Below, piece by piece: positions 5,101 to 58,198 of a DNA stretch of 64,000 nt; positions within the stretch are counted from its first letter, which is position 1; every line of letters begins with the position of its first letter. The notes beneath the pieces are model-generated. The model had not been told where the DNA came from. It did no database searches and worked only from the letters and a program-made list of their open reading frames with translations. The translations under genes and the position numbers were made by a program. The stretch spans positions 12,644 through 76,643 of the forward strand of contig CAYHBA010000004.1 of NCBI GenBank assembly GCA_964354755.1, written 5' to 3'. This DNA comes from an uncultured Thermoplasmata archaeon. GTDB lineage: Archaea > Thermoplasmatota > Thermoplasmata > SG8-5.

Positions 5101-5804
5101 GGGACGAATCCCATGTCATAGACACAGTCCCGGTCGGAACCAACACCTACACGGACTTCAACAGGGGCCTGGGCGACACCACCATCTGGTGGTATGTCGT
5201 GCGCGCAGAGGACGGGATAGGTAACCGCGAGTCCAACACCATCTCGGTGCCCGAACCCGGCGCCGCGCCGCCGTATGCCATAAACCTTGCCGGCAAAAGC
5301 GCCAACAGCTGGGTATTCGTATCCTTCCCGTCCGCGACCAGCGGCAATATCCAGACCATACTGAACGACGCCACCGTCGGCGACGGGCTCACGACCTGGA
5401 CCGTAGCCAAGTGGTTCAACATACAGACGCCTTCAGATCCGTGGAAGACCTACAGGGTCGGAAGCACTGTCAACGACCTCACGACGATATCCAGCACCAT
5501 GGGCGTGTGGCTCTGGATAACGGCCAACGGCGGGGACCAAGCGCTCACGCTGAACGCTTATGCGGCACCGGCCGCGACCCCGGTGACCATCAATCTGCGC
5601 ACAGGCTGGAACATGGTCGGATACCCGAGCATGACAAGCAGGTCAGAATCCGCCACCCTGCCGGCAGCGGCAGACTTCGTCGCAACCTGGCAGGCTGCAA
5701 CGCCATACATAACACAGCATGCAAAGGGAGCAAGCATGATGTCCCACGGAAACGCATACTGGGTGCATGTCACGGCAGACTGCACATGGTCTGTAAACCC
5801 GTAA
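2121..5804 (+). CDS. Secreted subtilisin-like serine protease (peptidase S8) with 565-aa shared tail
   Basis: 1227-aa ORF. Hydrophobic signal/anchor GLAVLIVAAVLLVPTTLTFA. Subtilase triad motifs AEVQDNGID (Asp), HGTCTSGEMFG (His) and GGTSGATPSVAGCSG (Ser). The true start may be ATG 2166 (AAGGAG at 2148-2153). Confidence 0.9.
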   Translation: MAPFYIMWRKEPGVCMFGETRAKYCGLAVLIVAAVLLVPTTLTFARQTAVENTTENYYLVTFSELPSDCLRLELAEAFDMEFLEYHQDNTYMVKAPVDRIDQISAMPQVAGVVQYAPAQKIASELHHLTGPVSLRVDLHSGNYVQAVAQILEGLGASVTKTNSVVVDYLYCDVDASAIPEIADIVQVKSIYPQGEKSTFMNLISSNPYMGSDTPQANAFLGSGILAEVQDNGIDRLHIDLQNVDYTDGSVVADAHGTCTSGEMFGTGTGDSDALGSLPQAVGAFADWGTGNAVSIANLWNGDFNEGSAGMNGIVQTNSWYAGGTMDGGYAPVSNEIDNAARDYPHVLNHWAIGNSNQGTQLGGMSWDSSGKNSIAVGAIFHGDTAALNDDEWHDAGAGMTPSRGPCADGRQHPDMCGPFDWIYTVDWSGANGYAPGNYYDDFGGTSGATPSVAGCSGLTYEMYRENFFGNNPGGAWPYSCTVKALMIADAHQYMIGINSIDRNVEGWGTPDMENMYNLGAEYHMIDEYPQALSSGGIWTRAVYSDGVHPLKITLCWIDPAAPGTTGHARALINNLDLKVTSPGGTVYYGNNGLWGNLDSTSGTGVNHWSLSSSYRDDLNNLENVFMQTPQLGIWTIEVSGRTGDVAQGPQDFSLVSSGAMEPIPSQGTMTLDSELYPREATVSMEVVDRDLNTDPFSAQTVNINLKSVAEPAGETTILTETGPNTCIFQGTGTISGTNSAGVVWVNVVDTITATYNDADDGTGSPAIVTDTAAVDGAAPTAPSGLTVQHWGLVTGNEVRFMRGVASEANVNGLTAYLAGTAQSTTSANAGNLGNNVNLYAGIRAWVRHSGGTETELTAGTAAAVVYGNGTGTYSSLWTPPFTILQPTDSVVVRFYVNTATPPTTVRATFTTEQLGATQLDANLWNVTYFLRKAGIAQGGSSLVWGTTSYDTRISGFSWKSAANYQDHNTLNWTHTGADVDHYVIYRSEMSSGPWDESHVIDTVPVGTNTYTDFNRGLGDTTIWWYVVRAEDGIGNRESNTISVPEPGAAPPYAINLAGKSANSWVFVSFPSATSGNIQTILNDATVGDGLTTWTVAKWFNIQTPSDPWKTYRVGSTVNDLTTISSTMGVWLWITANGGDQALTLNAYAAPAATPVTINLRTGWNMVGYPSMTSRSESATLPAAADFVATWQAATPYITQHAKGASMMSHGNAYWVHVTADCTWSVNP
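4107..5804 (+). repeat. 1698-nt 3' cassette, copy 2
   Basis: See copy 1. Contains a 319-bp tract (5011..5329) identical to 9221..9539. Confidence 0.85.
5274..5801 (+). other. Shared CTD, copy 2, 176 aa
   Basis: Same module, ends [16 protein letters not shown]-stop. Confidence 0.85.
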
Positions 5805-5815
5805 CAATGAATAAT

Positions 5816-5850
5816 GCCGGCGTTCCTACGAACGCCGGCCCATTTGATTT
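5816..5850 (+). terminator. Hairpin plus T-rich tract after S8 gene
   Basis: GCCGGCGTT-cctacg-AACGCCGGC (9-bp stem), then CCATTTGATTTC. Confidence 0.5.
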
Positions 5851-5935
5851 CAATCTTCAATATCATGAAATACGTTATTATTAATTAACCTTGAACAGCA
5901 GGTTATAAATACTATGAAAATGGTAATTCACATAC

Positions 5936-5945
5936 ATTTAAATAT
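5936..5945 (+). promoter_or_regulatory. TATA-box-like element upstream of C11 gene
   Basis: ATTTAAATAT about 47 nt upstream of ATG 5992. Confidence 0.4.
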
Positions 5946-5991
5946 TTCGCGCTCATTGATTATCCAGATGATTTCAAAAGGAGATTGAACC

Positions 5992-8900
5992 ATGAAATCT
6001 AAAGTTTTGAAGAACGTGGCAGTGGTGGTATTGGCAGTTCTGATGGCCCTGCCAGTCGGAATGGCAGTGGGCAGCAATGAACCGGTAACTGATGCCGGAA
6101 TGGGCGATTCGCCCGGGTTTGCTTTCGGGGAAAGGGCCGTTGCAAGCCTCGGCGACTCGAATTACGAGGTCTGGGTCGAGGGTCCGCAGCATGATGCAAG
6201 GCTGATGTTCGCGATGAGCTCCGGCTCAGGCGGGTGGACCGGGCCAAAACAGATTACTGGCTCGGAATTCAACCCGATGAGCGTTCAGATGGTGGCGGGA
6301 AGCCAGACATTGCATGTTGTATGGCAGGACGGCCTGACCAAACTTCTGCGAACAGGATACATGACAATTAATGCGGGCGGCAAGTGCTCTGAACCGACAG
6401 TATTCCAGGGCGAGAAACCATCGTTGGCCATATGCGGCGAGACTGTTGCATTTTCATATATATATTTTGGAACTACGAATGTCCAAGTGAGCCATGACTC
6501 GGGCATCGGATTTACATCTTACACCATTTTTGACGGACTATTCAGCCAGAACAACCGGTTATCTTTCAGTGAGGGCAAACTCGAGGCCGTTGCCAGCGCA
6601 GGCATAAGAGACCAGGAAACCGGCCAACTCTCCTCAAGGGGATTATACTATACTTCCTTTGATGACCTATCATGGTCTATGCCTAGCATGATCGCAGAAG
6701 CAGGCCCGGTCAACGACCTATCATTTACCGAAGGCACTCTGACCTGGACCGAGACTTCGGATTTCACAAAGAACTCGTATGAAATGACAGAAAATGGTCT
6801 GGGAATTTTCACCGACAAAGTTCTTGTTTCTTCTGAGAACATCCAGAAAACGCCTGCGGGAACGCAGCAGCCTCTGCCCAGGCTTCCCCCGAAGAAATGG
6901 ACATACATCGGCTATGTGGACGCCGATAACAGCCTTAACAGCTGCGGTCTGGAGGACCTTAATGAAATGGAACAGATTGGTTCTAATGCGGACCTCAACA
7001 TCATAGCCCTTTTTGACGGGAGCTCCAGCGGAGATTCGAAAGCCTATTATATCCAGCAGGATGCAAACATGGGCGCCATCACCTCGCCCCAGATACCGTT
7101 GAACACCATCAACTCCTCCTGGGGCATGGAGCTAAACATGGGCGCTCCTCAAACATCAATCGATTTCGTGAATTATATTTATGTGAATTATCCAGCCGAA
7201 CACTACATGTGGGACATGTGGGACCACGGTGGCAGCTGGCTTTACGGCATGTGCTCCGACGATACGAATGGCGATGACTATACTATGCTCGAAGTGCGCA
7301 CGATATACGAAACATTAAGGATAGACAACAGCAAACTAAAACTGTTCGACGTGGCCGGCTATGACGAATGCCTGATGTCGGATGTGGAGGTCGACTATGA
7401 TGAAATCCCGTTCATCGATTACATCTGCAACTCTGAGGACAGCATCCCCGGGGACGGCTGGGAGTACAACATGGTGCTCGGCCCGTTGGCGGCGAATCCT
7501 GACATGGGCGGCGAGCGAGCAGCCTGGCTAATATTCGATGCATACGTCGATTATTATGGGACGAACAGCGGCCCCACAATGTCAATAATCAACTCGACAG
7601 TGTTCTTCTACGAGTTGATTCCTGCGATTAACAACCTCGCCCAGAAAGGCATTCATAACATTACGGCAAACAGGGCTGTGCTGCAATCGGCGGCCAATAA
7701 TGCAAAATCATGGCAGGGTTATACTTGGAACAAGGACCTAATAGATTTCTGCAACAGGGCCGTTGCCGCACTCCCGGCCAACGAGATAAAGACAGCCGCG
7801 CAGGGCGTGGTAACGGCAGGAGAGTCCAACCCGCCTGGCACACAGTACGGGGGGCCTTCATGGCAGCATGACAGGGCAATCCTCATCCACAACCAGAATT
7901 CCGGAGAGGAGGGCATCACGATATATGTGGCCAGTCCGCCTTATAACACCCTGTACAATACCCTGACATTCACCGAGAACAAGTGGGACGAGTTCTACAA
8001 GGTGCTGTGGGGCAGCGACGCCAGCGATCCGAACATCGAACCCGCCGTCATCATAACAAGCCCAGCGAATGGCGGTTACGTGACCATTGACGCATATGTG
8101 GTCATAAACGGGACAGCAAGCGACGCAGATGGCTCCGTCCAAGGTGTGGAGGTCTCAATGGACACAGAGCACTGGGAGCCGGCCACAGGCACGACCTCGT
8201 GGTCGTTCGGCTGGGACACTACAGGTTGGTCATTCGGCCCGCACTGGATTCAGGCGCGTTCATATGACGGCCAGGATTACAGCGCCCCTTACCAGATACA
8301 GGTCGAGATGGTTGATATTCCCTCCGAGGGAACAATTGAGCTCGACTCCGAGCTGTACCAACAAGAGGCCACGGTCGCCATGGAAGTGGTGGACAGAGAC
8401 CTGAACACAGATCCCTTGACCGCGCAGACCGTCAACATTAACCTGAAGAGCGTAGCCGAGCCTGCCGGCGAAACTACCATTCTCACCGAGACAGGCCCGA
8501 ACACCTGCATGTTCCAAGGGGCCGGAACCATATCCGGAACAAACTCAGCCGGCGTTGTCTGGGTGAACGCGATGGACACCATAACCGCCACCTACAACGA
8601 TGCAGATGACGGCACGGGCAGTCCCGCGGTCGTAACGGACACTGCCGCTGTGGACGGGCTCGCGCCGGCTGCGCCGAGCGGTCTGACAGTGGACCACTGG
8701 GGCATGATATCCAGCAACGAAGTCAGGTTCATGAGGGGTATCGCCAGCGAAGCCAATGTCAACGGCCTCACCGCCTACCTTGCCGGAACCGCCCAATCCA
8801 CAACGGTGGCCAATGCTGGCAATCTCGGAAACAATGTCAACTTGTATGCGGGCATCAGGGTGTGGGTGCGCCACTCCGGCGGCACCGAGACAGAGTTAAC

Positions 8901-10014
8901 TGCCGGCACGGCTGTCGCCATCGTCTACGGCACCGCCACGGGCACTTATTCAGCCCTTTGGACCCCGCCCTTCACAATCCTGCAACCCACAGATTCGGTC
9001 GTTGTCAGGTTCTATGTCAACACAGCCACCCCGCCGACCACGGTCCGAGCCACATTCACGACAGAGCAGCTCAGCGCGACCCAGCTTGATGCGGACGAAT
9101 GGAACATGACATATTTCCTCAGGAAAGCCGGCATAGCTCCGGGCGGCTCGTCCCTGGTCTGGGGGACGACAGCATATGACACGAGGATTTCCGGCTTCTC
9201 CTGGAAATCGTCGGCCAATTACCAGGACCACAACACGCTCAACTGGACGCACACGGGCGCGGACGTTGACCATTATGTGATATACCGCTCGGAGATGAGT
9301 TCCGGACCCTGGGACGAATCCCATGTCATAGACACAGTCCCGGTCGGAACCAACACCTACACGGACTTCAACAGGGGCCTGGGCGACACCACCATCTGGT
9401 GGTATGTCGTGCGCGCAGAGGACGGGATAGGTAACCGCGAGTCCAACACCATCTCGGTGCCCGAACCCGGCGCCGCGCCGCCGTATGCCATAAACCTTGC
9501 CGGCAAAAGCGCCAACAGCTGGGTATTCGTATCCTTCCCAAGCGACATCACCGGCAATATCCATACGATACTGGACGACGCTGCGGCCGGCGACGGACTC
9601 ACGACCTGGACAGTGGCCAAGTGGTTCAACATACAGACGCCCGCTGACCCGTGGAAGACATACAGGGTCGGAGTAACAACCAATGACCTCGCAACAATCA
9701 CGAATGCAATGGGCCTGTGGCTCTGGATAACGGCCAACGGCGGGGACCAGGCTCTCACGCTGAACGCTTATGCGGCACCGTCCACGACCCCGGTGACCAT
9801 CAATCTGCGCACAGGCTGGAACATGGTCGGTTACCCGACCATGACAAGCAGGTCAGAATCCGCCACGCTGCCGGCACAGGCAGACTTCGTCGCAACCTGG
9901 CAGGCTGCGACGCCATACATATCGCAACACGCCAAGGGCGCGGCCCTGTTGTCCAACGGGAACGCCTACTGGGTGCACGTGACGGCTGACTGCGTGTGGA
10001 CAGTACAGCCTTAA
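5992..10014 (+). CDS. Secreted clostripain-like cysteine peptidase (family C11) with Asp-box-like N-region, Ig-like domain and 565-aa shared tail
   Basis: 1340-aa ORF with GGAG 8 nt upstream. Signal peptide MKSKVLKNVAVVVLAVLMALPVGMAVG. C11 hallmarks WTYIGYVDADNSL, WDMWDHGGSW (His) and DVAGYDECLMSDVE (Cys). The last 1698 nt are a copy of the tail of the two S8 genes. Confidence 0.9.
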   Translation: MKSKVLKNVAVVVLAVLMALPVGMAVGSNEPVTDAGMGDSPGFAFGERAVASLGDSNYEVWVEGPQHDARLMFAMSSGSGGWTGPKQITGSEFNPMSVQMVAGSQTLHVVWQDGLTKLLRTGYMTINAGGKCSEPTVFQGEKPSLAICGETVAFSYIYFGTTNVQVSHDSGIGFTSYTIFDGLFSQNNRLSFSEGKLEAVASAGIRDQETGQLSSRGLYYTSFDDLSWSMPSMIAEAGPVNDLSFTEGTLTWTETSDFTKNSYEMTENGLGIFTDKVLVSSENIQKTPAGTQQPLPRLPPKKWTYIGYVDADNSLNSCGLEDLNEMEQIGSNADLNIIALFDGSSSGDSKAYYIQQDANMGAITSPQIPLNTINSSWGMELNMGAPQTSIDFVNYIYVNYPAEHYMWDMWDHGGSWLYGMCSDDTNGDDYTMLEVRTIYETLRIDNSKLKLFDVAGYDECLMSDVEVDYDEIPFIDYICNSEDSIPGDGWEYNMVLGPLAANPDMGGERAAWLIFDAYVDYYGTNSGPTMSIINSTVFFYELIPAINNLAQKGIHNITANRAVLQSAANNAKSWQGYTWNKDLIDFCNRAVAALPANEIKTAAQGVVTAGESNPPGTQYGGPSWQHDRAILIHNQNSGEEGITIYVASPPYNTLYNTLTFTENKWDEFYKVLWGSDASDPNIEPAVIITSPANGGYVTIDAYVVINGTASDADGSVQGVEVSMDTEHWEPATGTTSWSFGWDTTGWSFGPHWIQARSYDGQDYSAPYQIQVEMVDIPSEGTIELDSELYQQEATVAMEVVDRDLNTDPLTAQTVNINLKSVAEPAGETTILTETGPNTCMFQGAGTISGTNSAGVVWVNAMDTITATYNDADDGTGSPAVVTDTAAVDGLAPAAPSGLTVDHWGMISSNEVRFMRGIASEANVNGLTAYLAGTAQSTTVANAGNLGNNVNLYAGIRVWVRHSGGTETELTAGTAVAIVYGTATGTYSALWTPPFTILQPTDSVVVRFYVNTATPPTTVRATFTTEQLSATQLDADEWNMTYFLRKAGIAPGGSSLVWGTTAYDTRISGFSWKSSANYQDHNTLNWTHTGADVDHYVIYRSEMSSGPWDESHVIDTVPVGTNTYTDFNRGLGDTTIWWYVVRAEDGIGNRESNTISVPEPGAAPPYAINLAGKSANSWVFVSFPSDITGNIHTILDDAAAGDGLTTWTVAKWFNIQTPADPWKTYRVGVTTNDLATITNAMGLWLWITANGGDQALTLNAYAAPSTTPVTINLRTGWNMVGYPTMTSRSESATLPAQADFVATWQAATPYISQHAKGAALLSNGNAYWVHVTADCVWTVQP
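8317..10014 (+). repeat. 1698-nt 3' cassette, copy 3 (fused to a C11 head instead of S8)
   Basis: See copy 1. Confidence 0.85.
9484..10011 (+). other. Shared CTD, copy 3, 176 aa
   Basis: Same module, ends [16 protein letters not shown]-stop. Confidence 0.85.
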
Positions 10015-10028
10015 ACACGAATCAGAAT

Positions 10029-10057
10029 GGGGAGCCGGTCGGCTCCCCTCCTTTTCT
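10029..10057 (+). terminator. Hairpin plus T-rich tract after C11 gene
   Basis: GGGGAGCC-ggtc-GGCTCCCC, then TCCTTTTCT. Confidence 0.5.
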
Positions 10058-10109
10058 AATTTCCTGCGGGCCGGTCGCTAATGCAGTAACCATGGATTCC
10101 AAATGAGCA

Positions 10110-10123
10110 TAATTTAAATACAT
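10110..10123 (+). promoter_or_regulatory. TATA-box-like element upstream of C1 gene
   Basis: TAATTTAAATACAT 35-48 nt upstream of ATG 10158. The identical 14-mer occurs at 13780..13793. Confidence 0.45.
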
Positions 10124-10157
10124 CCAAAGGTATGTTATATGTACAAGAGGTTGGAAA

Positions 10158-13100
10158 ATGGTTCAGATTATGAATTGGAAGTGCGTATTCTCCTGTCTGG
10201 CCGCTGGGCTGCTGATAAGCTCTGCCTTGGGTCTTGCCGCAGGAAGCCTTGAGAGTGGGAATGCAGTCTTGATTGCGGACCCTTTGGAGAATCTTGCTCC
10301 GCCGACCACCTTCGACCTGCGCAACGTCGGCGGACACAATTATGTCACATCGGTAAAAAGCCAGTCAGGAGGGACCTGCTGGACGCACGGCACGATGGCG
10401 GCCATCGAGGGCAACCTGCTGATGACGGGCGAATGGGCCGCGGCAGGGGAGAGCGGCGAGCCGAACCTGGCCGAGTATCATCTGGACTGGTGGAACGGGT
10501 TCAACCAGCACAACAATGACGACACGGTTCCGCCGACAGGCGGAGGCCTGGAGGTGCACCAGGGCGGAGACTATCTAGTGACCTCGGCCTACCTTGGCAG
10601 GGGAGAAGGCGCGGTCAGGGACATTGACGGGCAGTCATACGACATCCCGCCGGAGAGATACGATGACAGCTACCACTATTACTGGGTGAACGATATGGAA
10701 TGGCTGGTTGCCGGCCCCGGCCTAGAGCACATAGACGACATCAAGACCACCATAATGACGGAGGGCGTCATGGGGACATGCATGTGCTATGACAGTGCCT
10801 TCATGTCAGCAACCTACGAGCACTATCAACCTCCCAGCAGCCCGCTCGAACCGAACCACGCGATTGCCATAATCGGCTGGGACGACAACAGGGACACTCC
10901 CGCGCCTGCGAACGGTGCATGGCTATGCAAGAACAGCTGGGGCACAGGCTGGGGATATGCCGGCTACTTCTGGATATCGTACTATGACAAATATAGCTGC
11001 CAGCACCCGGAGATGGGTGCTGTGTCTTTCCAGGATGTCGAACCCATGCCCTACGAGAATGTGTACTATCACGATTATCATGGCTGGCGCGCGACCATGA
11101 CGGACTGCACCGAGGCGTTCAACGCGTTCAACGGGACTGGCATAAACGGCAATGCCGAGCTTCTGGAAGCAGTGAGCTTCTGCACGGCAGAGGACAATGT
11201 AAACTACACCATATGCATATACAACGACTTCATCGGCGGGGAGCTGGCCAACCAGGCCTCCGAGCAATCCGGGTACCTGGCGAGGAAGGGCTTGCACACA
11301 GTAACACTCGACCAGACTGCTTTCGTGTGCCAGAATGACGATTTCTTTGTTTACCTGTCCCTATCCTCCGGAGGGCAACCTTACGATTGCACGTCCGAGG
11401 TTCCGGTGCTCCTGGATTCCGATTCCACCCCTGCATCCTACCAGAAAACCATGGCAGGTACGGTGGTAATATCTGCGGCCGAGCCTGGCCAGAGCTATTA
11501 CAGGGACGGGGGGAATTGGCTAGACCTATACAATTACGACACCAACCACAGCGCCAACTTCTGCATCAAGGCACTGACTGTGGGATGTCCGCCCCTTCCC
11601 ATGTTCGATGGCATCGGTTCCGTGAAGAACGGAGGCACCGGGGAGAGCCTGAGATTGTACTGGAACGCAGCAGAAGATCCTTTCCAGCCTGTCACATACA
11701 ACATATGCAGATGGGACCACAGCCCGAGCAGCGCCGAGATAGCCAACTCATTCTCGGGCTCCGCCTGGTTATACAACGGGACAGCGCTGACATACGAGGA
11801 CACGACCCTGACAGCCGGGCAGCAGTATTACTATGTGGTGCGCGCATACGACAGCATCGGCGAGTCAGACGCGAACGAGGTCATAGGGAGCGGCACACCG
11901 TCGATCGAGTGGTGGCTTCAGAGCTCGGAATCAATAATCATTGGATATCAGGAAATGAACACGGACCCGCTGGACGACCCCTCGGCGGTACAAACGACAT
12001 CCCTAGCCACTTTGGGGGACTTCCGGGTGGGAAACGTTGAGTGGATGAGCGAGGCCTTCGCCGCGCCGCAGGACCCCGCGGGAACATGGACATTCAATGC
12101 GTATGGACATGCATCCTCCCCACTGGTGGCAGGCAATCTCTATGCTAAAATATATCGGTACAACGGCGGTACTCCCTCATTGCTGTTCGCGACCGGATAT
12201 GACGACGAGGACATTGGCGATTACACGGCAACGCATCTGTTCGCATGGACATATACCGCAGGCGCGGGCATCATTCTGGCCGGCGACAGGGTCTATGTTG
12301 AGTACTGGGTGCATGTCACTGCGACCGATGGAAGCGAAACACTGACCACATTCGGAACAACACAATCCGGCGGGCCGCACGATGTGTGGTTCTGCGATGT
12401 GGACGACGCGGTCTCTTCGGAGTTCACAATCCCGAACATCGGAAGCTCAGAATTCACCGATGCGGCCTATGCTAACGCAGCTGCATCGGACAATATCCGG
12501 GCTGGACCGACTGGTTCCTCCGGCGTAGGCGACGAATGGTTCGTCAGGTGCAATTTCACGACCAGAGTGGACCCGGTCACAATCACCGAAATAGACTTGA
12601 CATTCGAAGGCCTGTGGAGTGTTGGCGGCACTGCGACAATGTACGCATATGATGCCGCGTCCGCAACCTGGGTGACAGTAGGCGCAACAGCGCCGATAAT
12701 TGCAGGCACTGACTTGACAATGACCCGAACCATTGCCTCCGGCATGACCGATTACTTCTCCGGGGGCGTCATCAGGTGGGGCGTCTACGGCAGCGGGCCC
12801 ATGAGCACCTGTGCCGTCGACTTCCTGCAGTGTGTCATCACCGCCCCCACAGCATTCACCGTGAATTACGACGATCCTGCCGCCCCAACGAGCATAAACC
12901 CCGCACTGACGGCCGCAGGACCCCAGCCCGAGTACAGCATCGACCTCGCAGGAAAGCCCGCGAACAGCTGGGCGTTCGTGTCCTTCCCCATCGCGGTGAG
13001 CGGCAATGTCCAGGCCATTCTCAACGATATGACCCTTGGCGACGGGGCCACAACCTGGACTGTCGCCAAGTGGTACGACCCAGCAACACCCGCGGACCCA

Positions 13101-13463
13101 TGGAAGACCTACAGGGTCGGCAGCACGACGAATGACCTGGCCACAATCACCAACCTGATGGGTGTGTGGCTGTGGATAACCGCGAACGGCGGGGACCAGA
13201 TGCTGACCGTCGGTGTCAACGGCGACTACCCTGCAACAGCAGTGAACATCAACCTGTACACGGGCTGGAACATTGTCGGATACCCCACTGCAACGAGCAG
13301 GGCAGAATCCGCAACGCTGCCGGCAGCAGCGGACTTTGTAGCAGTCTGGCAGGCAGCAACACCGTACATAACGCAGCATGCCAAGGGCGCGGCCATGATG
13401 TCCCACGGAAACGCCTACTGGGTACATGTGACAGCTGATTGTTTATGGGTTGTAAACCCGTAA
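10158..13463 (+). CDS. Secreted papain-like cysteine peptidase (family C1) with FN3-like and unknown modules plus shared C-terminal domain
   Basis: 1101-aa ORF with an N-terminal signal-like hydrophobic segment. C1 motifs [19 protein letters not shown] (Cys), [11 protein letters not shown] (His) and [21 protein letters not shown] (Asn-Ser-Trp). Confidence 0.9.
12933..13460 (+). other. Shared CTD, copy 4, 176 aa
   Basis: [19 protein letters not shown]...[16 protein letters not shown]-stop. Confidence 0.85.
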
Positions 13464-13666
13464 TCCACATCCAAAGATAGCAATAACTGGCGCTTCATCG
13501 AGCGCCAGCGTTACGGAGGACGAGCATGTGCACCGGAGGTTTTTCATTTACTGAATAATTCTTTTTGCCGAAGGTGCGCCCCGCAGGCGAATAGGTCGCC
13601 GAGGCAAAGACGAATCCGCAGATTCGTCTGAGAGCGCAGTCCGAAGTTCAAAAAGAAATACTCGCA
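13464..13666 (+). repeat. Structured post-stop repeat element, copy A (MITE-like, unclassified)
   Basis: 203 bp starting right after the stop of the C1 peptidase gene, with 4 mismatches and no indels versus 23284..23486. Perfect hairpins CTGGCGCT-n6-AGCGCCAG (13487..13508) and GACGAATC-CGCA-GATTCGTC (13609..13628). Outer inverted repeat TTCTTTTTG...CAAAAAGAA. Confidence 0.8.
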
Positions 13667-13668
13667 TA

Positions 13669-13716
13669 CTTTGGGTGCATGTGACGGCAGATTGTACTTG
13701 GGTTGTTAATCCTTAA
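13669..13716 (+). pseudogene. Orphan copy of a CTD gene 3' end ([15 protein letters not shown]-stop) downstream of element A
   Basis: In-frame 16-codon fragment. It differs from the live 3' end (13419..13463) at 9 of 44 aligned nt, yet only one amino acid changes. Confidence 0.6.
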
Positions 13717-13779
13717 TTAGAACTGCTCGTATAAAATTCGGATTGGATATGCAATAATGAAAGATATATCCTTTAGGTG

Positions 13780-13793
13780 TAATTTAAATACAT
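13780..13793 (+). promoter_or_regulatory. TATA-box-like element upstream of C13 gene
   Basis: TAATTTAAATACAT about 110 nt upstream of ATG 13903. Confidence 0.4.
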
Positions 13794-13902
13794 TTAAGTA
13801 TACCATAACCTATTATATTTCTCAAGATGCGCAGTTGCATGAATTTACATTGCGTCATGTTTCGTGCGTATTTTGTGAGTCATTCAGAGGAGCGGTTGAA
13901 AA

Positions 13903-16851
13903 ATGAAGACTAAAAACAGTAATTGTGTGGGTTTGACATTGTTGATTGTTGGTGTGTTATTGATGGCAATACCCATTCCTTTGTCCGGGATCCCAGTTCA
14001 GTCCAATGAGGCTGAAGGGTCCGTATTATTCGGTCAGCCAGCATCAATCGGCAGTCCTGACGAGGCGTTTGATGCCGTGGCCGGTGACATCGGTCCTGGA
14101 AAGGTTGACGGATTGGGGATCTTTGTATCCCGGGAAACATTGCCAGAAGGCACCGTCATCACAAACTATAAGGGTCCGTTTTATGCGCTACAACAAGCCC
14201 AATGGTTTGTTATGATTGACGATCATCCGGGGGCTAACTGGGAGCATCCCTGCCGCTATGTGTTCGTTGATCCTGAAACGGGAGAATGTCAATTTATTGA
14301 AGCGACAAGTCCACCGAGTATGCTGAAGGATATGATCCGATTTCAGGGACCCGATCCATTCGGAGGTGAAAACAGGAAAGGCGGTCAGTCCAGCGATGTT
14401 AACATGCAATCCCGTTCGCCCGAACATTTATGGGCCGTCATTCTCTCCGGAGGTTATGATTCCGGCAACAATCATGTTCGTTACTGGAACGATTGTTCGG
14501 AGATATATAAGACCCTCGTTAACGTTTACGGTTATTTAGATTCACAGATTATTGTGGCAATATCCGACGGTCTTAATCCGGCGGTGGACCAGTCGAACGG
14601 TCAGAATTCCGATCCTGACCTTGATGGCGACGGTGACGACGATATCATGTATCCCTGTCTGTATGCTGATGTTGACTCCATCTTCGCCAATCTTGCTGCA
14701 ACGCTGACCTCGACGGACAGCTTATTTATCTTCACAACGGACCATGGTAGCGGGCAGTATGGCGTCCCGGGACAACCGGTCTGCATGAACCTCTGGAATG
14801 CAGGAGAGTTATGGGATTATCAACTCGCCAGTATGCTCGAACCCATAAACTGTCGTGGAATGATCATAACGATGGAACCTTGTTTTTCAGGAGGTTTTGT
14901 CAATGATATCATAGGCATGAGTTCGACAGTGCCGCGTGTTATTTCCACGGGTGCAAATGATATGGAGTATTCCTGGGCCATGGGCCCCGACTATATTTAC
15001 GATACATACGTCTTTCACTGGACTGCCGCGGTAAGGTGGATGGATGCGTACGGCGTGCCGGTTGATGCCGACACCAACAGTGACACAAAAATAACCATGG
15101 ATGAGGCTTACAACTACGCTCTTTCCATGGACACCGATGACGAACACCCACAGTATGGTGAATGGCCGGTCGGTTTCGGCTCGACTATTACACTGGCCGG
15201 CTCTGGACCTATTTCTATGGGTGAGGTAAAACTGGATAGCACTGGTTACAACTGTAATGATGTGGTAAATATCGTAGTCGAGGATCTCGATCTCGAAGGC
15301 GCCGGGACTGTTCAGGTCTATATCGAAAGCAATACAGAGACCACCCCTGAAACTGTGACTCTGACCGAGACGGATACGGCCCATTTCGAGGGTTCGATTA
15401 CAATGGCCATCGGAGCGCCCTCACCGGACGGTGTTCTGCAGGTTAATGTTGTGGACTTGATAACTGTCACCTACAATGATGCAGATGACGGTACCGGTTC
15501 GCCGGCAATTGCTACTGACACTGCAACCGTTGATGGATTGCCCCCCGGACCTGTGACTGGGCTGACTGTCGAATGGTGGGGAGAGATTTTCGTCACATTG
15601 ATAGACGAGCATTTCTCGACCAATCCGGGCTGGACTATAACGCACACTGCCGGCACAGCCTGGACATATTCTGCGACCAACCAGAGAATGGAGAACACCT
15701 ACGGCTATCCGAACTCCGGATACCTTGACAGCCCGGTGGTTGACTGCACGGGTCTAACTGGCACCACGCTGTCGTTCTGGCATTTCTGGCAGGCTAACTA
15801 CGCCGGCGGGACGCAGGACGGATACGTCCGAGGCAGCATCGACGGCGGTTCTACCTGGCCTCACCTCGTGGACGAGTTCCATCACAACGATCCGGCCACG
15901 GAGACCGCTGTGAAGAATTACACGATACCCTGGGCAGACGGCCACAGTCTGGTGAGAATACGCTACGACATCTACAACTACGATGATTGGTACTGGCGCA
16001 TAGACGATGTGCTCATGACCGCGGGTGGCGGGAGCACGACAGAGCACAACTGGCTGAATTGGACGCTTTCGGCGGACGACGGGGCAGGCGCGAACGACGT
16101 GGACCATTACAACATCTACCGGGCCTTGGCAGCGTCCGGGCCATGGGACGCAACGGCGCTTATTGACACCGCGCCCGCGGGTACGGCCACCTACATGGAC
16201 CTCGGCCGGGGGGAACCGGACGGTATCAACTGGTGGTACGTGGTTCGCGCTGAGGATATCTGGGGCAACGAGGAGATGAACACAATCGCGGTTCCAGAAA
16301 TCTCAACCGGGCTGACTGCCTACAATATCGACCTGACAGGCCATGCGAGCAACAGCTGGGTGTTCGTCTCGTTCCCGCATGCGGTGAGCGGCAATATCCA
16401 GGCCATGCTGAACGATGCGACATTGGGCGACGGAGCCACGACCTGGACCGTGGCCAAGTGGTACAACCCGCAGACACCGAACGACCTGTGGAAGACCTAC
16501 AGGGTCGGAAGTACAGTGAACGACCTTGCCACAATAAGCAACCTCATGGGCGTGTGGCTCTGGATCACTGCGAATGGCGGGGACCAGCATCTCACGGTCG
16601 GCGTCAACGGGGACTATTCGTCAACGGCTGTGACCGTCAACCTGTACACTGGCTGGAACATGGTCGGATACCCGAGTGCGACAAGCAGGGCGGAATCAGC
16701 CACGTTGCCGGCAGCAGCGGACTTTGTGGCAGTGTGGCAGGCTGCAACGCCGTACATAACGCAGCACGCTAAAGGCGCGGCCTTGATGGCCGCGGGCAAT
16801 GCCTACTGGGTGCATGTCACGGCAGACTGCACCTGGACAGTGGACCCGTAA
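13903..16851 (+). CDS. Secreted legumain-like cysteine peptidase (clan CD, family C13-like) with beta-sandwich, MAM-like, FN3 and shared C-terminal domain
   Basis: 982-aa ORF with GAGGAG 11 nt upstream. Signal/anchor VGLTLLIVGVLLMAIPIPLSG. Legumain-like block WAVILSGGYDSGNNHVRYWNDCSEIYKTL. Catalytic dyad contexts FIFTTDHGSG (His) and IITMEPCFSGGF (Cys). Confidence 0.85.
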   Translation: MKTKNSNCVGLTLLIVGVLLMAIPIPLSGIPVQSNEAEGSVLFGQPASIGSPDEAFDAVAGDIGPGKVDGLGIFVSRETLPEGTVITNYKGPFYALQQAQWFVMIDDHPGANWEHPCRYVFVDPETGECQFIEATSPPSMLKDMIRFQGPDPFGGENRKGGQSSDVNMQSRSPEHLWAVILSGGYDSGNNHVRYWNDCSEIYKTLVNVYGYLDSQIIVAISDGLNPAVDQSNGQNSDPDLDGDGDDDIMYPCLYADVDSIFANLAATLTSTDSLFIFTTDHGSGQYGVPGQPVCMNLWNAGELWDYQLASMLEPINCRGMIITMEPCFSGGFVNDIIGMSSTVPRVISTGANDMEYSWAMGPDYIYDTYVFHWTAAVRWMDAYGVPVDADTNSDTKITMDEAYNYALSMDTDDEHPQYGEWPVGFGSTITLAGSGPISMGEVKLDSTGYNCNDVVNIVVEDLDLEGAGTVQVYIESNTETTPETVTLTETDTAHFEGSITMAIGAPSPDGVLQVNVVDLITVTYNDADDGTGSPAIATDTATVDGLPPGPVTGLTVEWWGEIFVTLIDEHFSTNPGWTITHTAGTAWTYSATNQRMENTYGYPNSGYLDSPVVDCTGLTGTTLSFWHFWQANYAGGTQDGYVRGSIDGGSTWPHLVDEFHHNDPATETAVKNYTIPWADGHSLVRIRYDIYNYDDWYWRIDDVLMTAGGGSTTEHNWLNWTLSADDGAGANDVDHYNIYRALAASGPWDATALIDTAPAGTATYMDLGRGEPDGINWWYVVRAEDIWGNEEMNTIAVPEISTGLTAYNIDLTGHASNSWVFVSFPHAVSGNIQAMLNDATLGDGATTWTVAKWYNPQTPNDLWKTYRVGSTVNDLATISNLMGVWLWITANGGDQHLTVGVNGDYSSTAVTVNLYTGWNMVGYPSATSRAESATLPAAADFVAVWQAATPYITQHAKGAALMAAGNAYWVHVTADCTWTVDP
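16321..16848 (+). other. Shared CTD, copy 5, 176 aa
   Basis: YNIDLTGHASNSWVFVSFP...[16 protein letters not shown]-stop. Confidence 0.85.
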
Positions 16852-16864
16852 AACGCAAAAGAAT

Positions 16865-16910
16865 GGGGCGCTGAGAGGCGCCCCTCCCTTCAATTTTGTT
16901 TATTTTCTTT
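16865..16910 (+). terminator. Hairpin plus T-rich tract after C13 gene
   Basis: GGGGCGC-tgagag-GCGCCCC, then TCCCTTCAATTTTGTTTATTTTCTTT. Confidence 0.5.
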
Positions 16911-16940
16911 ACTCCACAAATTTTTCGAAGCTCCAAAACA

Positions 16941-16948
16941 TTAAAATA
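16941..16948 (+). promoter_or_regulatory. TATA-box-like element upstream of metallopeptidase gene
   Basis: TTAAAATA 36-43 nt upstream of ATG 16984. Confidence 0.4.
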
Positions 16949-16983
16949 GACAACCCTCCATGTTTAAGTTAAGGAGTTCCGAC

Positions 16984-19900
16984 ATGAAGATATTTACTTT
17001 GCAGGCATTTGTTTGGATACTGATTTTAAACCTCATGATTTCCGGTATTATCTTCAATTTTGGTGATTCCCAGGCGGGCTCTGCCGACCTGGAAACAAAG
17101 AGCCAGGACGAATCACTCGCCGACGCCGATCCATGCCCGACTGCGGCATCAGAATCTCCAGCAGTTCCGCAACTGAGGCATATCGGGACATATCCGATCG
17201 CATCCCCGGATGCCAATCTGGATAATCCCAACGACCCGTATTATACCGAATCCCTATACTTCATTAACAATCAAGCTTCGGGCGCTCCAGAAGAAAGTCC
17301 TCCATTGAAAACCGAAAACACGCAATCCCGATTGGCCGGACCTCCTGCCACATCAGATACTGGCAGCGTTGGGTATGAACCTAGGGCGATATACAGCGTT
17401 CAGGGGATTTTCAGATATCAGGACAGGGAGCAGGATGAGACTGGATTCACCGGAGTAAATCCATTATTGCCAATCAGGTTCGCGGATGTCGAAGTATATG
17501 ACGTCAACACACAGCAGGTATTGGCCTCGGGCCACACTGACTTCAACGGTTATTTTTCAATCATGGTCAACGATGCTGTGATTCGGGACATTGCGATTCG
17601 GGCCATAACCACTTCAAATGACCATCCCGGCCTGACAAATCATTCCGTGACACTGACTCCCGGTGACGGCGGTGCCCCCTACACGATAAGTACCCCAACA
17701 TATTTCAATCATCCATTGACAGACATTGATTTCACCGGAACGCCAGTCAATGCAATGGCCGGCGGTGCAGGGAACGCATTCCACCTCTTCGATTGCCAGG
17801 AGAACGTTGAAAGGTACGCTGAAAACCTCACTAGCGCCCAGCCCAGGCACAATCTCACAATATACTGGAGAGCCGGAGCGTCCTATGGCAAGGAGTATGA
17901 CACTAATGGACACATTTATCTGATGGGTTCAAGCGCGGATGACGATTCATACGACGACACTGTGGTTTACCATGAAATGGGGCATTACCTCGCTGGCTGC
18001 TATTCGAAAGATGCAGGATATTACGGCGCTCATAGTCTGAATGGCAACTACGACATCCGGCTTTCATATACCGAGGGCCTGGGCAGTTATTTCATGGGGG
18101 CAGTCAGAGATTATCTGGGTGTGGTTCAGCCCCTTATCTACATCGAGACGAACGGCGTGAGCCTGAACTGGTACGGATACTCGATTAGCTACGACACAGA
18201 CACGCCCTCGGGATATTCCAACCAGCCCCGCCCGTACTCCATGTGCACCGCTGAAAACGAGGCTACGGTCGGTCATGCGCTATTCGACATCGTGGACAGC
18301 TCCGCATCTGACGATGGCACTCCGGGAGTCGACGACGATTTGTTCGACCTGTCAGGATTGCAGGGCGACCAGCTTGTCTGGGACGTTTTGGTTTCCATCG
18401 ACGAAAATGCAACATCATTCACAAAGAAGATCACCATGGAGACCTTCATCGATACTTTCAGGACTATGTACCCTGTATATAATGCGCAACTTACACAGGT
18501 ACTGGCGGACAGCGGTATAGAATACCTCGACGATGCCTATGAGAATGATGACACTTATCTCCAAGCGCAGCCCAAACTTATCGGCAGTGAATATCATCAT
18601 ACGTATTTTGGGGCGGGCGACCAGGACTGGTCGTCATATGGTTTAACCGTAGGAACAGACTATGTTTTCAAGACGATTGACCTGTACGATTGGGCGGACA
18701 CCAAACTTGAGCTTTATGATACTGATGGAATTTCACTGTTAGATTCAAACGACAACCGGGACGACGGAACCAAAGAATCTCTAATAAGATTCTTAGCCCC
18801 AGCAAACGGCCAGTATTACATCAAATCCACAAGAACACCGGAAACGCCGATGCCCACCGGCGAATATGGCAAATATAATCTAACATCATACATAGTTTTC
18901 AATCCCGTGGTTGTTTCCATTGTCCCAAACACAGGGCCAGTTCCTGGGGGGACCACTGTATGTATCACAGGCGAGAATTTCACTGCCAGCGGATCAATCC
19001 TCTTTGGTGTGTATGAGGCGACAGGCGCAATTCTGGCAGGCAATGTCTACACTGTGACCACGCCAGCTAATGTGCCTGGTCCAGTTGACGTGGTTGTGAA
19101 TAATCCTCCTACACAGGATGGCATCATTCCAAGCGGCAAAATGGTAAATGGTTTCACTTACACAGGCACACCGCTGGCCCCGATTGTCAGAGAGGTGTCT
19201 CCGCCCTTTGGGTCGTCAATAACCACGAATGATGTAACAGTCGAGGGCGATTATTTCATGAGTGGAGCCAGCTTGTATTTTGACGACTTGGTGATTATTA
19301 CACCATCCGTAATCAATCCGAAGATGATAACAGCGACTTTACAGATTTTACCCGCCGACATGTATGATGTGAACGTCACAAACCCGGACATGCAATATGA
19401 TGTGCTTGCCAACAGTTATGAGAGCACGCTTCAAATGTTCAACTCGACTACAGTCATTTTCGACTATTACAGCCCACTCACGACAACGATCTTTGTTCCG
19501 GACGATTTCATTATTTCGGACCTCTATGTTTTCGTTAATGTTTCTTATCCCGGGGACGAGCCCGTGGTGGAACTCGAGAGCCCCATTGGCACCACAGCAA
19601 AAGTATTTGATGAAATTCAAGTTGTTGAAGATGATGAAAACTGGCGTACGCAAATGAGTTCCTGGTTCGGGTACGCCGAAGCCCCTTCGGAGGGGCTTTA
19701 CCAGTACAAGGGAGAACACACCCAGGGAGAGTGGACCCTGCGGCTGACCAGCCCAACAAGCTGGGATAGCACCCTGCACTCATGGGGCATCTGTTTCCTG
19801 CAATACAGCCATAGGAACATCTCCAGAATCCTTTACACGCCTTGCGAGTACAGGAATTACCTTCTGGCTGTGGACGGAACCACGGGCGAGCATCTCTATC

Positions 19901-22900
19901 GGGCCAAGCTCGAAACCTGGCCCGGAAGGGTCACTGTTTCGGCTGACCAGACTAAAGTTTACTCCAGTACTTTTAGCTATTATAATGCCACAACAGGCGG
20001 TTACACGGATTCTTTATTGAATTGTTTCCAGAGTTTCACCGGCAAGAAGATCCAATCGATAATTCTCGAAGGCAAGATGGGCCGTCAGGCACTGGCGACG
20101 ATACCCAACAGCAATAAAATAGTGGCAATTACATCTCACAATCTCTACGTAATAAATACCGACACCCAGGCAATGGAAGACTACATTGTATTACCCTCAG
20201 TATACAATACATTGGAGCTCGGTGTAGCTGTTTCGCCCGACGGCCTTACTGCATACTGCACCCCGAACACCGGAACCCTGGAATATGTTCAGATGGTGGA
20301 TTTATCGACAATGACATTATCCGGCCAGATATCCACTCCAGGTAAGATTCCATACGATGTTGAAATCTCGAATGACGGTGCGACAGGTGTTATTGGCTAT
20401 ACCACTAATACAATGGACGTTTTTGACACCTCGACCGATACAATATTCGACACAATCAATCTCCCCTCCTGGGCCGCTTGGATAAGCCTTACTCCCGATG
20501 CCACAAAGGCTTTTTACACGACTTATCAATGGTATGCTGGATTTGGTACAGCTAACCTGACCACGCATGCAACCCACAATGTAATGGACGATCCCGAATC
20601 CACAACAATTGGGGTCAAAATCTCCAATGATTACAGGTCATATGTCGTTGATTGGTACAGGGGGAAGATATTGATTTACGATGCCAGGACCGAGTTGAAA
20701 ATCGACGAATTCGATGTGATGGACGGCATAAGCCTGTACCCATCCGGCATAGACATTGTGGATATGGTTGGTGCTCCATCATTATCGGCGAATGTGGTCA
20801 TGGGAGGGAACATCAGTTTATCCTGGTCGGCCCCATCAAGCCCCGGCACCCCAATATCCTATTATAAAATCTATCGCGGCACTTCATCCGGGCGGGAGGT
20901 GTTCTACAGGAACACAGCCTCTACTGGTTTCCTCGACTACAACATCACTAATGGCCAGTATTTCTATAGGGTTGGCGCTGTGAATGGGGCTGGAGAGGGC
21001 GGCCTTTCAAACGAGGCACAGGCAGTCTCGATGGCCCCAACAGTGACTGTTGACCACCCGACAGCACCCGATACAATAGAATCCGGCAATGTGAACATCT
21101 TCTGGGCAATTACTGACAATGACCCGCTGCCCAATGGCGGGAATGTCGTTAACATATCTTACTCGGACGATTGCGGGGCAAGCTGGATTCCGCTGGCAAC
21201 AAATGCCGGCGCGAACTCGGACCCGTTTACATGGAATGCCGGCTCACTGCCTGACGGAGTGAGTTACATAATAAAAATCACCGCATACGATGCCACCGGG
21301 CAGAAAGGAATAGGCTATTCGGACAACCCCTTTTCACTGGACAATGTTCCTGACGACAGATGGCATTTCCAAACCCAGTTCAGCGGTCCGCTCAAGGATC
21401 TTGACATGAAGCCCGTCGAGCTTAGCCAGCAGGTCATTCCAATTCCTGTGGATGGGGCAGACGAGTACGTAATCGGTAAATGGGAAGGGAGAGCATATCC
21501 TTCGGGAAGGGACATCTCCGGGCAATGGAACTTCAGCGTCTGGGGTTTTGTGTCCATCGAAGGCCTTTGCAGTGCACACCTCAAAGCGAAAATATACACG
21601 TCCAGCAATCCGACGCCACTTTACACGACAGTTTCCGATAATGAGGATATCAATGAATTTTCCTCCGCATATCACGAATATTGCTGGCAGGATTTCGGTG
21701 TATCTGGCATGACAATTCCTGGGGATCATGTCCAGGTCGAACTGGTGTTGGACGCGTCCTTCGGGACACCCACGGATTTCGTTTACAACAACACGGACAG
21801 CGACATTCCCGGCAACGGCACGGTAACCGGAACACATGTGGCCACCCAAGTATCCGATGATGTTTATCAAACAATACAAGAGATACCGGCAGGCAAGACA
21901 ATCTTAATTGCCGAGACCTTTGACGGTTCCTTCCCACCTGCGGGATGGGCCAAATACACAGGCAATCCGGCCACAACATGGCAGACCTCCGGGGGAAGCC
22001 CGAGCGGAGACCCTCCCGACGCATATATATACCGCTGTTCCACGGACGGACTCAGTTCTGTCTGGAGGCTCTATGCAGGACCGATTGACACGAGCCAGGT
22101 GACTTCATTGACGCTAGAATGGGCCTGCAATTTCAACCAATGGAACGGCGCGGGTTGTTTCGGGAAAGTCCAGACAAGCACTGACGGAATAACTTGGCAT
22201 GACACCTCATGGATTAAGCCCACAGATGGCCCCGATGTCATAGGGCCTCAGAGCCTGTTGATTGAAACAGGCGACGAAGGCTCGGGCACGTTCTATTTCA
22301 GTTTGACATTGGAAGGAGAGCCTTACCACATGAACTCCTGGGCGGTGGATGATGTCAATCTTACCGGACTGACCACCTCCATTCTGGACCACAAATGGCC
22401 AGTGATAGTCGAAGGCAGCATGACAGAAGTCCTGTTCGGAATAGAAGCCCATGTCTCATCTGGAGAAGCTGTTTCTGTATATTACTCAGCAACAGGCTCA
22501 GGGCCAGTCGGTGGTGTGGGCTGGTGCCACATGCTCGAAGTGATAAAAACATCAGACGACGACTCGCTCCAGACCTATGTGTTGCCAGTTAGCACTTCCG
22601 GTACGATATGCATCGGCGCCAAGGACATCGACCGTGCAGCCGGCGACATCACCCTGGACACATTCTATATCGACAGGATGTTCGTCAGGTCTGAATTCGC
22701 CAGCCCAATTTTTAATTTCGGATACGACTCCAGCCAGACACAATCCTATGTCGAACCGCCTGCATCGCAATCAATCTTCAGCATTCCGGTGCTGCCCGGC
22801 TGGAATCTAATCTCGTTCCCGATTCAGGCATCGGGCTCACCGCTGGACGTACTGAACGATATGGGCGGCGACACAATCTGGGACATTGTCAAACGGTTCG

Positions 22901-23486: not shown

Positions 23487-23488
23487 TA

Positions 23489-57817: not shown

Positions 57818-57819
57818 AG

Positions 57820-58170: not shown

Positions 58171-58198
58171 GATAATAACAAGAAGGAGGTGATGTACA

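Follow-up and report, generated by a model that had tools for sequence, protein, structure and literature searches.

The 64-kb window analysed here (the whole stretch of 64,000 nt, from contig CAYHBA010000004.1 of an uncultured Thermoplasmata archaeon) contains a structured element without open reading frames (ORFs) that sits immediately behind the stop codon of the gene at 10158..13463 and is followed by a second, untranslated copy of that gene's last codons. This element, copy A, is on balance probably a member of a family of ORF-less structured elements of uncultured Thermoplasmata, with a core of ~100-155 nt, that enters homologous gene ends by recombination over short homologies. That the family is real, mobile and displaces gene ends is secure, and the recombination mechanism is the uncertain part of the account. 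At the level of sequence, comparisons among copies establish family membership, the structure of the core, the existence of empty sites, the ancestral nature of the displaced ("orphan") end, the import of one of the two ends, and the block within which copies A and B crossed over. The first-pass annotation, which was made from the letters of this DNA, had proposed a small ORF-less mobile unit that brings its own gene end and a structured 3′ region and displaces the resident end; this proposal is supported by further copies, empty sites and covariation.

Duplicated gene ends at four copies

The gene upstream of copy A lies on the plus strand; its product is a secreted protein of 1101 aa, in which a Pfam scan identified papain-like peptidase and lectin-like domains. 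The architecture originally described, a live gene end followed by a 203-nt ORF-less spacer (13464..13666) and an orphan end (13669..13716), was reproduced in all its coordinates. The orphan is a second copy of the terminal codons located 3′ of the element, and the 203 nt between the live stop and the orphan contain no plus-strand ORF of at least 40 aa, while a minus-strand ORF (13249..13470) intrudes by 7 nt only. Over the 45 nt from TGG to TAA, the live and orphan ends differ at nine residues, distributed 1/1/7 over first, second and third codon positions. As had been reported, these result in a single amino-acid change (L to T), and a TT indel is present at the 5′ junction (TACTGGGT versus TACTTTGGGT). 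The flanking repeat scores 49 in local alignment, while shuffled sequences average 13.8 and reach at most 22. The orphan had been called in-frame, which holds internally but not relative to the live gene, because its stop codon falls 253 nt after the live stop. Its remainder is continuous with native intergenic sequence and with the area of the next gene's promoter. An orphan belonging to a longer decayed pseudogene, which would have spoken against a displaced end, is not the case here, because similarity begins abruptly at the right end of the element.

A second copy in the window, copy B (23284-23486), is located at the end of a paralog of this gene (g6, 16960..23283). Over 280 nt, 23226-23505 matches 13406-13685 at 96% identity; upstream of 13412 the genes are unlike each other, and the orphans diverge from 13686 on (..ADCTWVVNP in A vs. 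..SDCIWTITP in B). Since A and B have the same live end and different orphan tails, at least one of the two genes gained its live end together with the element, in agreement with the earlier suggestion that the arm (the live terminal codons to the left of the element) is element-borne. A and B are unlike on either side of 13412-13685, so that two copies of TGGGTGCATGTGAC delimit the exchanged unit, and alignment places the crossover between them inside this 14-nt identity block. The two orphans begin with a common 23-nt head, CGC(A/G)TACTTTGGGTGCATGTGAC, with one mismatch (13666); it includes the TT indel, which is found in both orphan heads and in neither live copy. Differences between A and B number 3 in the 199 nt of 13464-13662 (13465, 13470 and 13498, all in the spacer left of the core) and 6 in the 52-nt arm, a distribution that suggests constraint on the element.

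Beyond orphan B, the native 3′ flank of g6 holds what is left of an older family member, its left half in decayed form. This remnant aligns to the left half of A and to residues 6785-6878 of L052 (L numbers denote loci fetched for comparison), and is of the L052-type subfamily. The g6 end has therefore been visited at least twice. The spacer of A and B resembles this same flank, and because the flank holds a decayed older member, the arm and spacer look like the end of a family member that was already followed by an element. The 3′ ends of other paralogs in the window consist of a simple GC hairpin and then a T-rich run.

The paralogs form a tandem array of six genes (65..23283) for large secreted proteins of 642-2107 aa. 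All six share a C-terminal motif, which occurs eight times in the window, at the six gene ends and the two orphans. They also share a C-terminal domain of ~175 aa that had no Pfam match in g4, the sole paralog scanned, and homologs of this domain were seen only as short metagenomic fragments. The element-borne ending ..CLWV/IVNP is present in none of these fragments.

The order of complete gene end, element, and orphan comprising the last 8-17 codons plus stop is shared by two more copies, C in the window and D in another metagenome-assembled genome (MAG). In all four, the flanking repeats are significant (z = 10-26) and end at the stop codon; they measure 24, ~53 and 54 nt and are 83-96% identical. 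With regard to insertion context, every direct-repeat-flanked copy lies directly after a stop codon.

Copy C follows an ABC-2 permease gene that is unrelated to the paralogs bearing A and B, and its 24-nt repeats contain one mismatch (0/0/1 over the three codon positions). The site is empty in GCA_018903355 and in a contig of ERZ724100 (empty orthologs L056/L057 and L062), so that the empty sites sought in relatives were found here as well as for the gene at copy D (below). In GCA_018903355, the permease gene and a convergent CN-hydrolase gene overlap by 7 nt at the empty site. Orphan C overlaps the hydrolase stop by 7 nt exactly as at the empty site (L056/L057), and orphan and flank therefore represent the ancestral layout. 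GCA_002497815 and three other assemblies of its population carry a shorter, decayed element with a 24-nt repeat at this site, and a third lineage is represented by three independent Logan assemblies, all of which break within the element copy at the permease site. Contig ends also fall inside element copies at L063 10925-10967, in L064 and L065, and at L002 1-73. That several independent assemblies end inside copies is consistent with an element that is multi-copy enough to break short-read assemblies.

The same permease/hydrolase junction is occupied in L058 (10878-11083; also in L059-L061) by a different, 206-nt MITE (miniature inverted-repeat transposable element). Its terminal inverted repeats are 12 nt long (TTCGAGATTGTT / AAAAATCTCGAA), it contains internal repeats of 34 nt, and a decayed ~13-nt repeat of the permease end (GACGGCCTATTAG / GACGGCTTATTCTG) flanks it.

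Copy D, in the Thermoplasmata MAG JAUSPR010000072, is located 3′ of a conserved gene encoding a 100-aa zinc-ribbon protein. A live end (...LAMSKDARRQLDGDLGA-TAA) is followed by a 111-nt element and the orphan LAMSKDARRQLDGDLGT-TAA, and the two ends differ by 1/0/8 over the three codon positions. Orthologs of gene D in L044-L051 are element-free, and the flank of orphan D is homologous to the native 3′ flank of the ortholog in L044. When L044 was compared with L045, the final 54 nt of gene D (39/54 identical) were a candidate end-swap footprint; this was ruled out, as 54-nt windows of the neighbouring gene span 23-52/54.

Pooled over A, C and D, 16/19 differences between live and orphan ends are at third codon positions (binomial p = 5e-4 against the ~45% third-position share, a hand estimate, expected for a neutrally drifting orphan). 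This excess indicates that both ends were coding while they diverged and that the divergence mostly predates their joining, as the first reading of copy A had proposed for its orphan. If both copies were coding when they diverged, one end must have come in with the element. The imported copy would derive from a diverged functional homolog: a paralog in the case of A and B, and a lineage ~17% diverged in the case of D.

Core structure and distribution of the family

Coordinates of the features of copies A, B and C are collected in Table 1. Within the core, which is 100-155 nt long across copies, the order is Block 1, the 5′ strand of helix P2, tract U1, a variable apical region, tract U2, the 3′ strand of P2, Block 3, and an A-tract. 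Block 1 is invariant across the family (GGAGGACGAGCA).

Two helices emerge from comparison of the copies, and the covariation that folding them was expected to reveal is present. In an eight-copy alignment, P2 (7-8 bp) is 90-92% paired; with its 3′ partners shifted out of register, the value falls to 20-51%. Compensatory changes occur at 4/8 of its pairs, the same four being found in a three-copy alignment, and P2 was predicted independently by RNAalifold. P2 includes G-U and U-G pairs, which the opposite strand would present as mismatches; this favours the strand with the same sense as the upstream gene. P4 pairs the two halves of the inverted repeat initially noted, TTCTTTTTG (13559-13567) and CAAAAAGAA (13649-13657). 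It forms 9-15 perfect base pairs in 8/8 copies even though the tract sequences differ, and only 0-9 of 500 composition-preserving shuffles do as well. P2 and P4 interleave and are thus modelled as a pseudoknot topology. The perfect hairpins of copy A were found at 13487-13494/13501-13508 and 13608-13616/13621-13629. The first of these is P0 in the spacer, whose stems covary between copies (CTGGCGCT/AGCGCCAG in A vs. CTGACAT/ATGTCAG in C).

Runs of T5-6, the archaeal termination signal, are present on both strands. The T5 runs described for copy A lie on the plus strand at 13540-13544 and 13562-13566; the minus strand has a T5 from the complement of CAAAAAGAA, and in copies C and D this strand has T5CT5. 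The core is plausibly terminator-like. A cmscan of 13300-13950 against Rfam 15 (E<=10) returned two chance-level matches (18 and 14 bits vs. gathering thresholds of 60 and 33), and at the gathering threshold four related loci gave 5S rRNA only. The T- and A-tracts are mirror-symmetric (TTTTTCT ... TTTTTCTTTTTG ... CAAAAAGAAAAA), as seen for 13540-13567 with 13649-13663 and for 45534-45561 with 45589-45605. A U.A-U / C+.G-C triple helix, either an ENE-like RNA (element for nuclear expression) or H-DNA, is formally possible from such tracts. Owing to this symmetry, U1 matches the A-tract over the same length in parallel (Hoogsteen-type) and in antiparallel orientation.

Table 1. Positions of features of copies A, B and C in the window
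Copy	Feature	Position	Strand	Sequence or remark
A	Live arm	13412..13464	+	Last 17 codons and TAA of gene 10158..13463
A	Crossover block in arm	13419-13432	+	14-nt TGGGTACATGTGAC
A	Spacer with hairpin P0	13465..13510	+	Stems 13487-13494 / 13501-13508; homologous to g6 native 3′ flank and to copy C hairpin
A	Conserved family core	13511..13665	+	Covariance-model matches, 111 bits and 78.6 bits
A	Block 1	13514-13528	+	CGGAGGACGAGCATG
A	Helix P2	13528-13534 / 13573-13579	+	
A	T-tract U1	13540-13545	+	
A	T-tract U2	13559-13567	+	Pairs with A-tract 13649-13657 (helix P4)
A	52-nt insertion	13581..13632	+	A and B only, absent in C and D; hairpins GGCGA..TCGCC and 13608-13616/13621-13629
A	Block 3, invariant in family	13633-13646	+	AGCGCAGTCCGAAG
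A	Element right end			...AAATACTC
A	Orphan head, element-borne	13663..13685	+	CGCATACTTTGGGTGCATGTGAC; with TT indel; common to copy B
A	Orphan native remainder	13686..13716	+	..ADCTWVVNP-TAA; differs from matching part of orphan B
B	Live arm	23232..23284	+	End of paralog 16960..23283 (..ADCLWIVNP-TAA)
B	Element	23285..23482	+	3 differences from A over A 13464-13662
B	Orphan end	23483..23536	+	Common head, then g6's own tail WVHVTSDCIWTITP-TAA
B	Decayed left half of older family member	23560..23625	+	Native 3′ flank of g6; P0-like hairpin and CGAGCAGGCGAGGGCGGTTTCT
C	Live end of ABC-2 permease gene	45454..45477	+	ATAGACACGACCACGGCTTACTGA
C	Element, 128 nt	45478..45605	+	P0 hairpin and core, without 52-nt insertion; covariance-model match, 129.9 bits
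C	Orphan end	45606..45629	+	ATAGACACGACCACGGCCTACTGA; holds stop (45623-45625, minus strand) of convergent CN-hydrolase gene 45623..46450

The further copies anticipated for a mobile unit were found in the window (B and C), in another MAG (D), and as diverged members recovered by covariance models. Exact 21-24-nt core patterns were scanned over 185,579 genomes, one per species, and over Joint Genome Institute (JGI) metagenomes. The genome scan yielded one true further copy, D, and all 41 matches in the JGI metagenomes were due to chance or to an unrelated insertion sequence (IS) gene. A scan of IMG/VR with the exact pattern returned no copy, a blastn query with the 205-nt element had no match in phage and plasmid collections, and neither an unfiltered search of the window nor a broader covariance model with default filters detected copies there beyond A, B and C. 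Exact patterns miss diverged members, as is evident from those matched later by covariance models built from the copies, which are located in L002, L044, L045, L052 and L067.

Several of these diverged members adjoin 5S rRNA genes (L002 2729-3204, L044 678-1016 and L045 265-363), where they lie directly at the 3′ end of the 5S gene and are inverted relative to it. A member at L067 371-476 is in the syntenic position upstream of the ArcTGT gene; the 5S gene was placed by Rfam in L002, L044 and L045 only. Members on the 5S side consist of one to three tandem units of ~185 nt, each with a ~60-73-nt flank ending in ..ATGTAGCTCGGAGAGGCA followed by a core. L052 has a solitary member, and a member in L002 is cut by the contig end. 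The diverged members that are not part of tandem units lack flanking repeats. Conservation of the 5S-side position across genomes that are only ~80% identical suggests that these members have been retained for a role, possibly as terminators. When L002 is compared to L044, the element array and 5S block are inverted relative to the ArcTGT and zinc-ribbon genes.

Elsewhere in the window, 52001-53000 and 57001-59000 have a lower G+C content (0.43-0.46 vs. ~0.55-0.58 elsewhere). These stretches adjoin PAS/response-regulator genes and a gene for an ice-binding-like surface protein.

Proposed spread by short homology and its alternatives

In the mechanism that we favour, the moving unit would comprise arm, spacer and core, and perhaps the orphan head. 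The arm, situated left of the core, is a functional copy of the last 8-17 codons of the target gene with their stop. For entry at a homologous gene end, the two sequences would recombine inside a short block of 14-17 identical nt that lies at the 5′ edge of the arm; such blocks are present in D (ATGTCCAAGGATGC, 14 nt) and in C (17 nt). The exchange could proceed as a Campbell-type single crossover of an excised circle carrying arm and element, or as gene conversion with the arm and the orphan head serving as two homology arms. Spread from ortholog to ortholog could use the entire upstream gene as a long anchor, and the short block would be needed only for the second crossover. The predicted product is an intact gene that ends in element-borne codons and reads into the terminator-like core, with the resident end pushed downstream as an untranslated orphan still attached to its native flank. 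By this route the same cassette could spread to paralogs, as between A and B, and across species, as for D. The first arm of each type may have arisen as a long target-site duplication, which the nearly identical permease repeats would fit. The recombining activity could be the RadA-type recombination of the host, or it could come from a recombinase that acts in trans and depends on homology, as Int-pTN3 does.

Several observations weigh against this mechanism. A Pfam scan of 30 ORFs of the window identified no recombinase, transposase or reverse transcriptase, no recombinase was seen next to the other copies in the fetched loci, and the data at hand contain neither a circle junction nor a site polymorphic within a population as direct signs of movement. 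The homology blocks, at 14-17 nt, are shorter than the ~100 bp or more of known archaeal cases (PMC5495485). Only four direct-repeat-flanked copies at three gene-end sites are known, and members in L045, at L002 3086-3204, at L044 895-1013 and at L052 6785-6876 have no flanking repeat. With respect to a donor for D, both of its end copies are equally distant (39-43/54) from the orthologs in L044, L045 and L066-L068, which are too diverged at synonymous sites to tell the foreign copy. The permease site presents a further difficulty. In the window (45454-45477/45606-45629) and in L052 (10952-10975/11050-11073), whose genomes are ~17% diverged in protein, the live end and the orphan have three substitutions in common that are particular to their genome, and one identical T/C mismatch separates live from orphan end at both sites. 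This pattern needs either concerted evolution or independent insertions at the same nucleotide that duplicated the local target, and the permease site fits a target-site duplication at least as well.

As a general explanation, however, ordinary transposition with a long and variable target-site duplication (a 24-54-nt stagger), whose repeats were identical at birth and later diverged in place, is unlikely. Variable direct repeats of 8-514 bp are known for IS1634 and IS1549 (PMC2266710), the 24-nt repeat of copy C has a single mismatch, the repeats in L052 share the substitutions of that genome, and L058 carries at this junction the MITE that has terminal inverted repeats, flanked by its decayed ~13-nt repeat. 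Neutral decay of an orphan should nonetheless hit all codon positions equally, in contrast to the third-position bias at A and D. The common live end of A and B in front of different orphan tails requires at least one import, and the TT indel common to both orphan heads is in neither live copy. A pure target-site duplication could explain the first origin of the cassette but not the present A, B and D, and it is a possible account of C. We also give little credence to a dedicated tyrosine or serine recombinase encoded elsewhere, with the copies as miniature, integrase-less derivatives resembling cis-mobilizable elements and the repeats as attL/attR. The layout is the classical one for integrators at gene 3′ ends that supply a substitute end, as for e14 at icd-icdC, each repeat has a 14-17-nt identity block at its 5′ edge, and the invariant core blocks could be putative recombinase binding sites. 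The same core, though, is found next to att-like sequences of at least three kinds that are unrelated to one another (surface-protein, permease and zinc-ribbon ends), which a single site-specific integrase would not all recognise, and the window ORFs and fetched loci lack an integrase, as the phage, plasmid and viral collections lack a match.

A host-beneficial RNA or terminator module, either a 3′-untranslated-region structure or a bidirectional terminator that is copied through selection and local gene conversion and leaves orphans incidentally, is very unlikely to account for the family on its own. It would agree with the T5-6 runs on both strands, with the position of copies always just past a stop codon or the 5S rRNA 3′ end (the 5S-side copy being kept in at least four diverged genomes), with P2 pairs that favour the strand co-transcribed with the upstream gene, and with a core much better conserved than the synonymous sites of the arm. 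It leaves unexplained both the imported gene end and the presence of the same 100-nt sequence in unrelated genes of different genomes with precise empty sites in relatives, and the core matches no Rfam family. RNA or terminator function and mobility may coexist. Finally, the window appears to come from a metagenome assembly and the repetitive element breaks some assemblies, so a chimeric join of strain variants, or one local tandem duplication, might be suspected; we consider this highly improbable. The permease-site junctions recur in four independent assemblies (NCBI, Logan and two JGI samples; L052-L055), the same layout is found at another gene in another MAG, the junction of element end and orphan shares no k-mer that could cause a mis-join, and the window holds copies at three places, with others in different genomes. 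An assembly artefact is excluded for C and unlikely for the other copies.

Taken further, spread by short homology leads to a bolder reading that we put forward tentatively, as a possibility we would not presently expect to hold: an undescribed class of archaeal mobile element with a ~100-nt pseudoknotted core and a modular "homing arm", a synonymous copy of a gene terminus, that copies itself into paralogous and cross-species gene ends, never inactivating them and repeatedly swapping their terminal codons. Such a class might also have a recombinase or nuclease of its own that acts in trans, and a triplex or H-DNA of the T/A tracts might take part in recombination or in RNA 3′-end formation.

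What is new here is that a tiny non-coding element can sit in the coding end of essential, conserved genes harmlessly, because a replacement end comes along with it. To our knowledge, this strategy is documented for large integrase-carrying prophages and plasmids, not for MITE-sized repeats. If spread by short homology is true, the element would represent a minimal natural "knock-in cassette" consisting of a homology arm and cargo, a route by which terminator-like modules and synonymous recoding of termini pass between archaeal species, and a source of orphan fragments of gene ends, which will be misread by annotation pipelines. The family also provides a new searchable structured motif, with two covarying helices, for uncultured Thermoplasmata, and a candidate bidirectional archaeal terminator.

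Relation to known mobile elements

The first-pass annotation had likened the element to MITEs, and the resemblance is partial. In size, lack of ORFs, copy number, stable structure and intergenic location just after genes, it resembles the MITE, REP/BIME (repetitive extragenic palindrome/bacterial interspersed mosaic element), SPRITE, RUP and Correia repeats, and a terminator role is plausible for it as for the small repeats reviewed in PMC10969869. It is small, ORF-less and multi-copy, with three copies in the window and more in relatives. Unlike prokaryotic MITEs, it has no inverted repeats at its outer ends. Its inverted repeat is internal: the left arm of P4 lies ~45-50 nt inside the conserved core, and the tracts are not terminal because Block 1 and the 5′ strand of P2, conserved in all copies, lie outside them. 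A short target duplication of fixed length and identical sequence is likewise absent. The flanking repeats are variable (24-54 nt), synonymously diverged and built from the target gene's own end, and some copies have no repeat at all. An autonomous IS that could supply a transposase was found neither in the window nor in the fetched loci. Nothing comparable to the displacement of gene ends appears in the review of prokaryotic MITEs (PMC10969869).

Other classes of element share individual features. Compared to the palindrome-associated transposable elements and REPs of the IS200/IS605 group, A, B and C have hairpin P0 close to their left end and D lacks it, and there is no right-end hairpin; four copies have long repeats and four have none, and no TnpA or TnpB was seen. 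A template/variable repeat pair like that of diversity-generating retroelements was ruled out, as no reverse transcriptase was found among the 30 scanned ORFs of the window and the differences involve all four bases and third positions rather than adenines only. The signal of an archaeal intrinsic terminator, at least five T residues on the non-template strand downstream of a gene, is present in A by sequence.

IS1634 and IS1549 are similar in having flanking direct repeats of tens of bases and variable length (PMC2266710), which offers a possible origin for the first arms. They differ in being autonomous DDE elements of 1.5-2 kb whose repeats are identical at insertion, whereas the repeats of A, B and D diverged as coding sequence before joining. 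Int-pTN3, an archaeal integrase of Thermococcales, carries out homology-dependent recombination between segments of ~100 bp or more (PMC5495485). In this reaction, and in homology-facilitated illegitimate recombination, any pair of homologous segments can serve as a site, and such an activity could move a cassette with a target-mimicking arm. No such enzyme was found here, in contrast, and the identity blocks span only 14-17 nt.

Polymorphic toxin and contact-dependent inhibition (CDI) loci provide a formal likeness. In these, an incoming cassette recombines at a conserved coding motif and replaces the C-terminal end, with the old end becoming a downstream orphan. CDI cassettes swap hundreds of codons together with an immunity gene and change function. 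The element is different in that 8-17 codons are replaced nearly synonymously (0-1 amino-acid change at A, C and D), and that its cargo is non-coding and structured; the likeness is formal only.

The nearest parallel is the E. coli prophage e14, which, according to PMC13626634 (citing Hill et al. 1989), supplies a substitute end for icd and leaves the orphan icdC. As described there, the gene is kept intact by terminal codons of the element's own, the native end is displaced downstream as a pseudogene fragment, and the two end copies differ mainly by conservative or synonymous changes, all of which hold for the element as well; excision of e14 recombines the two end copies. Flanking repeats with a core of identity, as expected of attL/attR, are present here (z = 10-26; blocks of 14-17 nt), as are precise empty sites (L044-L051; L056/L057 and L062). 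An own or cognate recombinase and a single att specificity, the other hallmarks of integrative elements, are not found among the 30 window ORFs and the three unrelated repeats. Prophage e14 is ~15 kb long and has its own integrase and one fixed att site, whereas the unit described here is 130-250 nt and ORF-less, and one core is joined to at least three different gene ends. By analogy, then, the element would follow the same logic as e14, but at MITE scale, with no recombinase gene and with modular arms.

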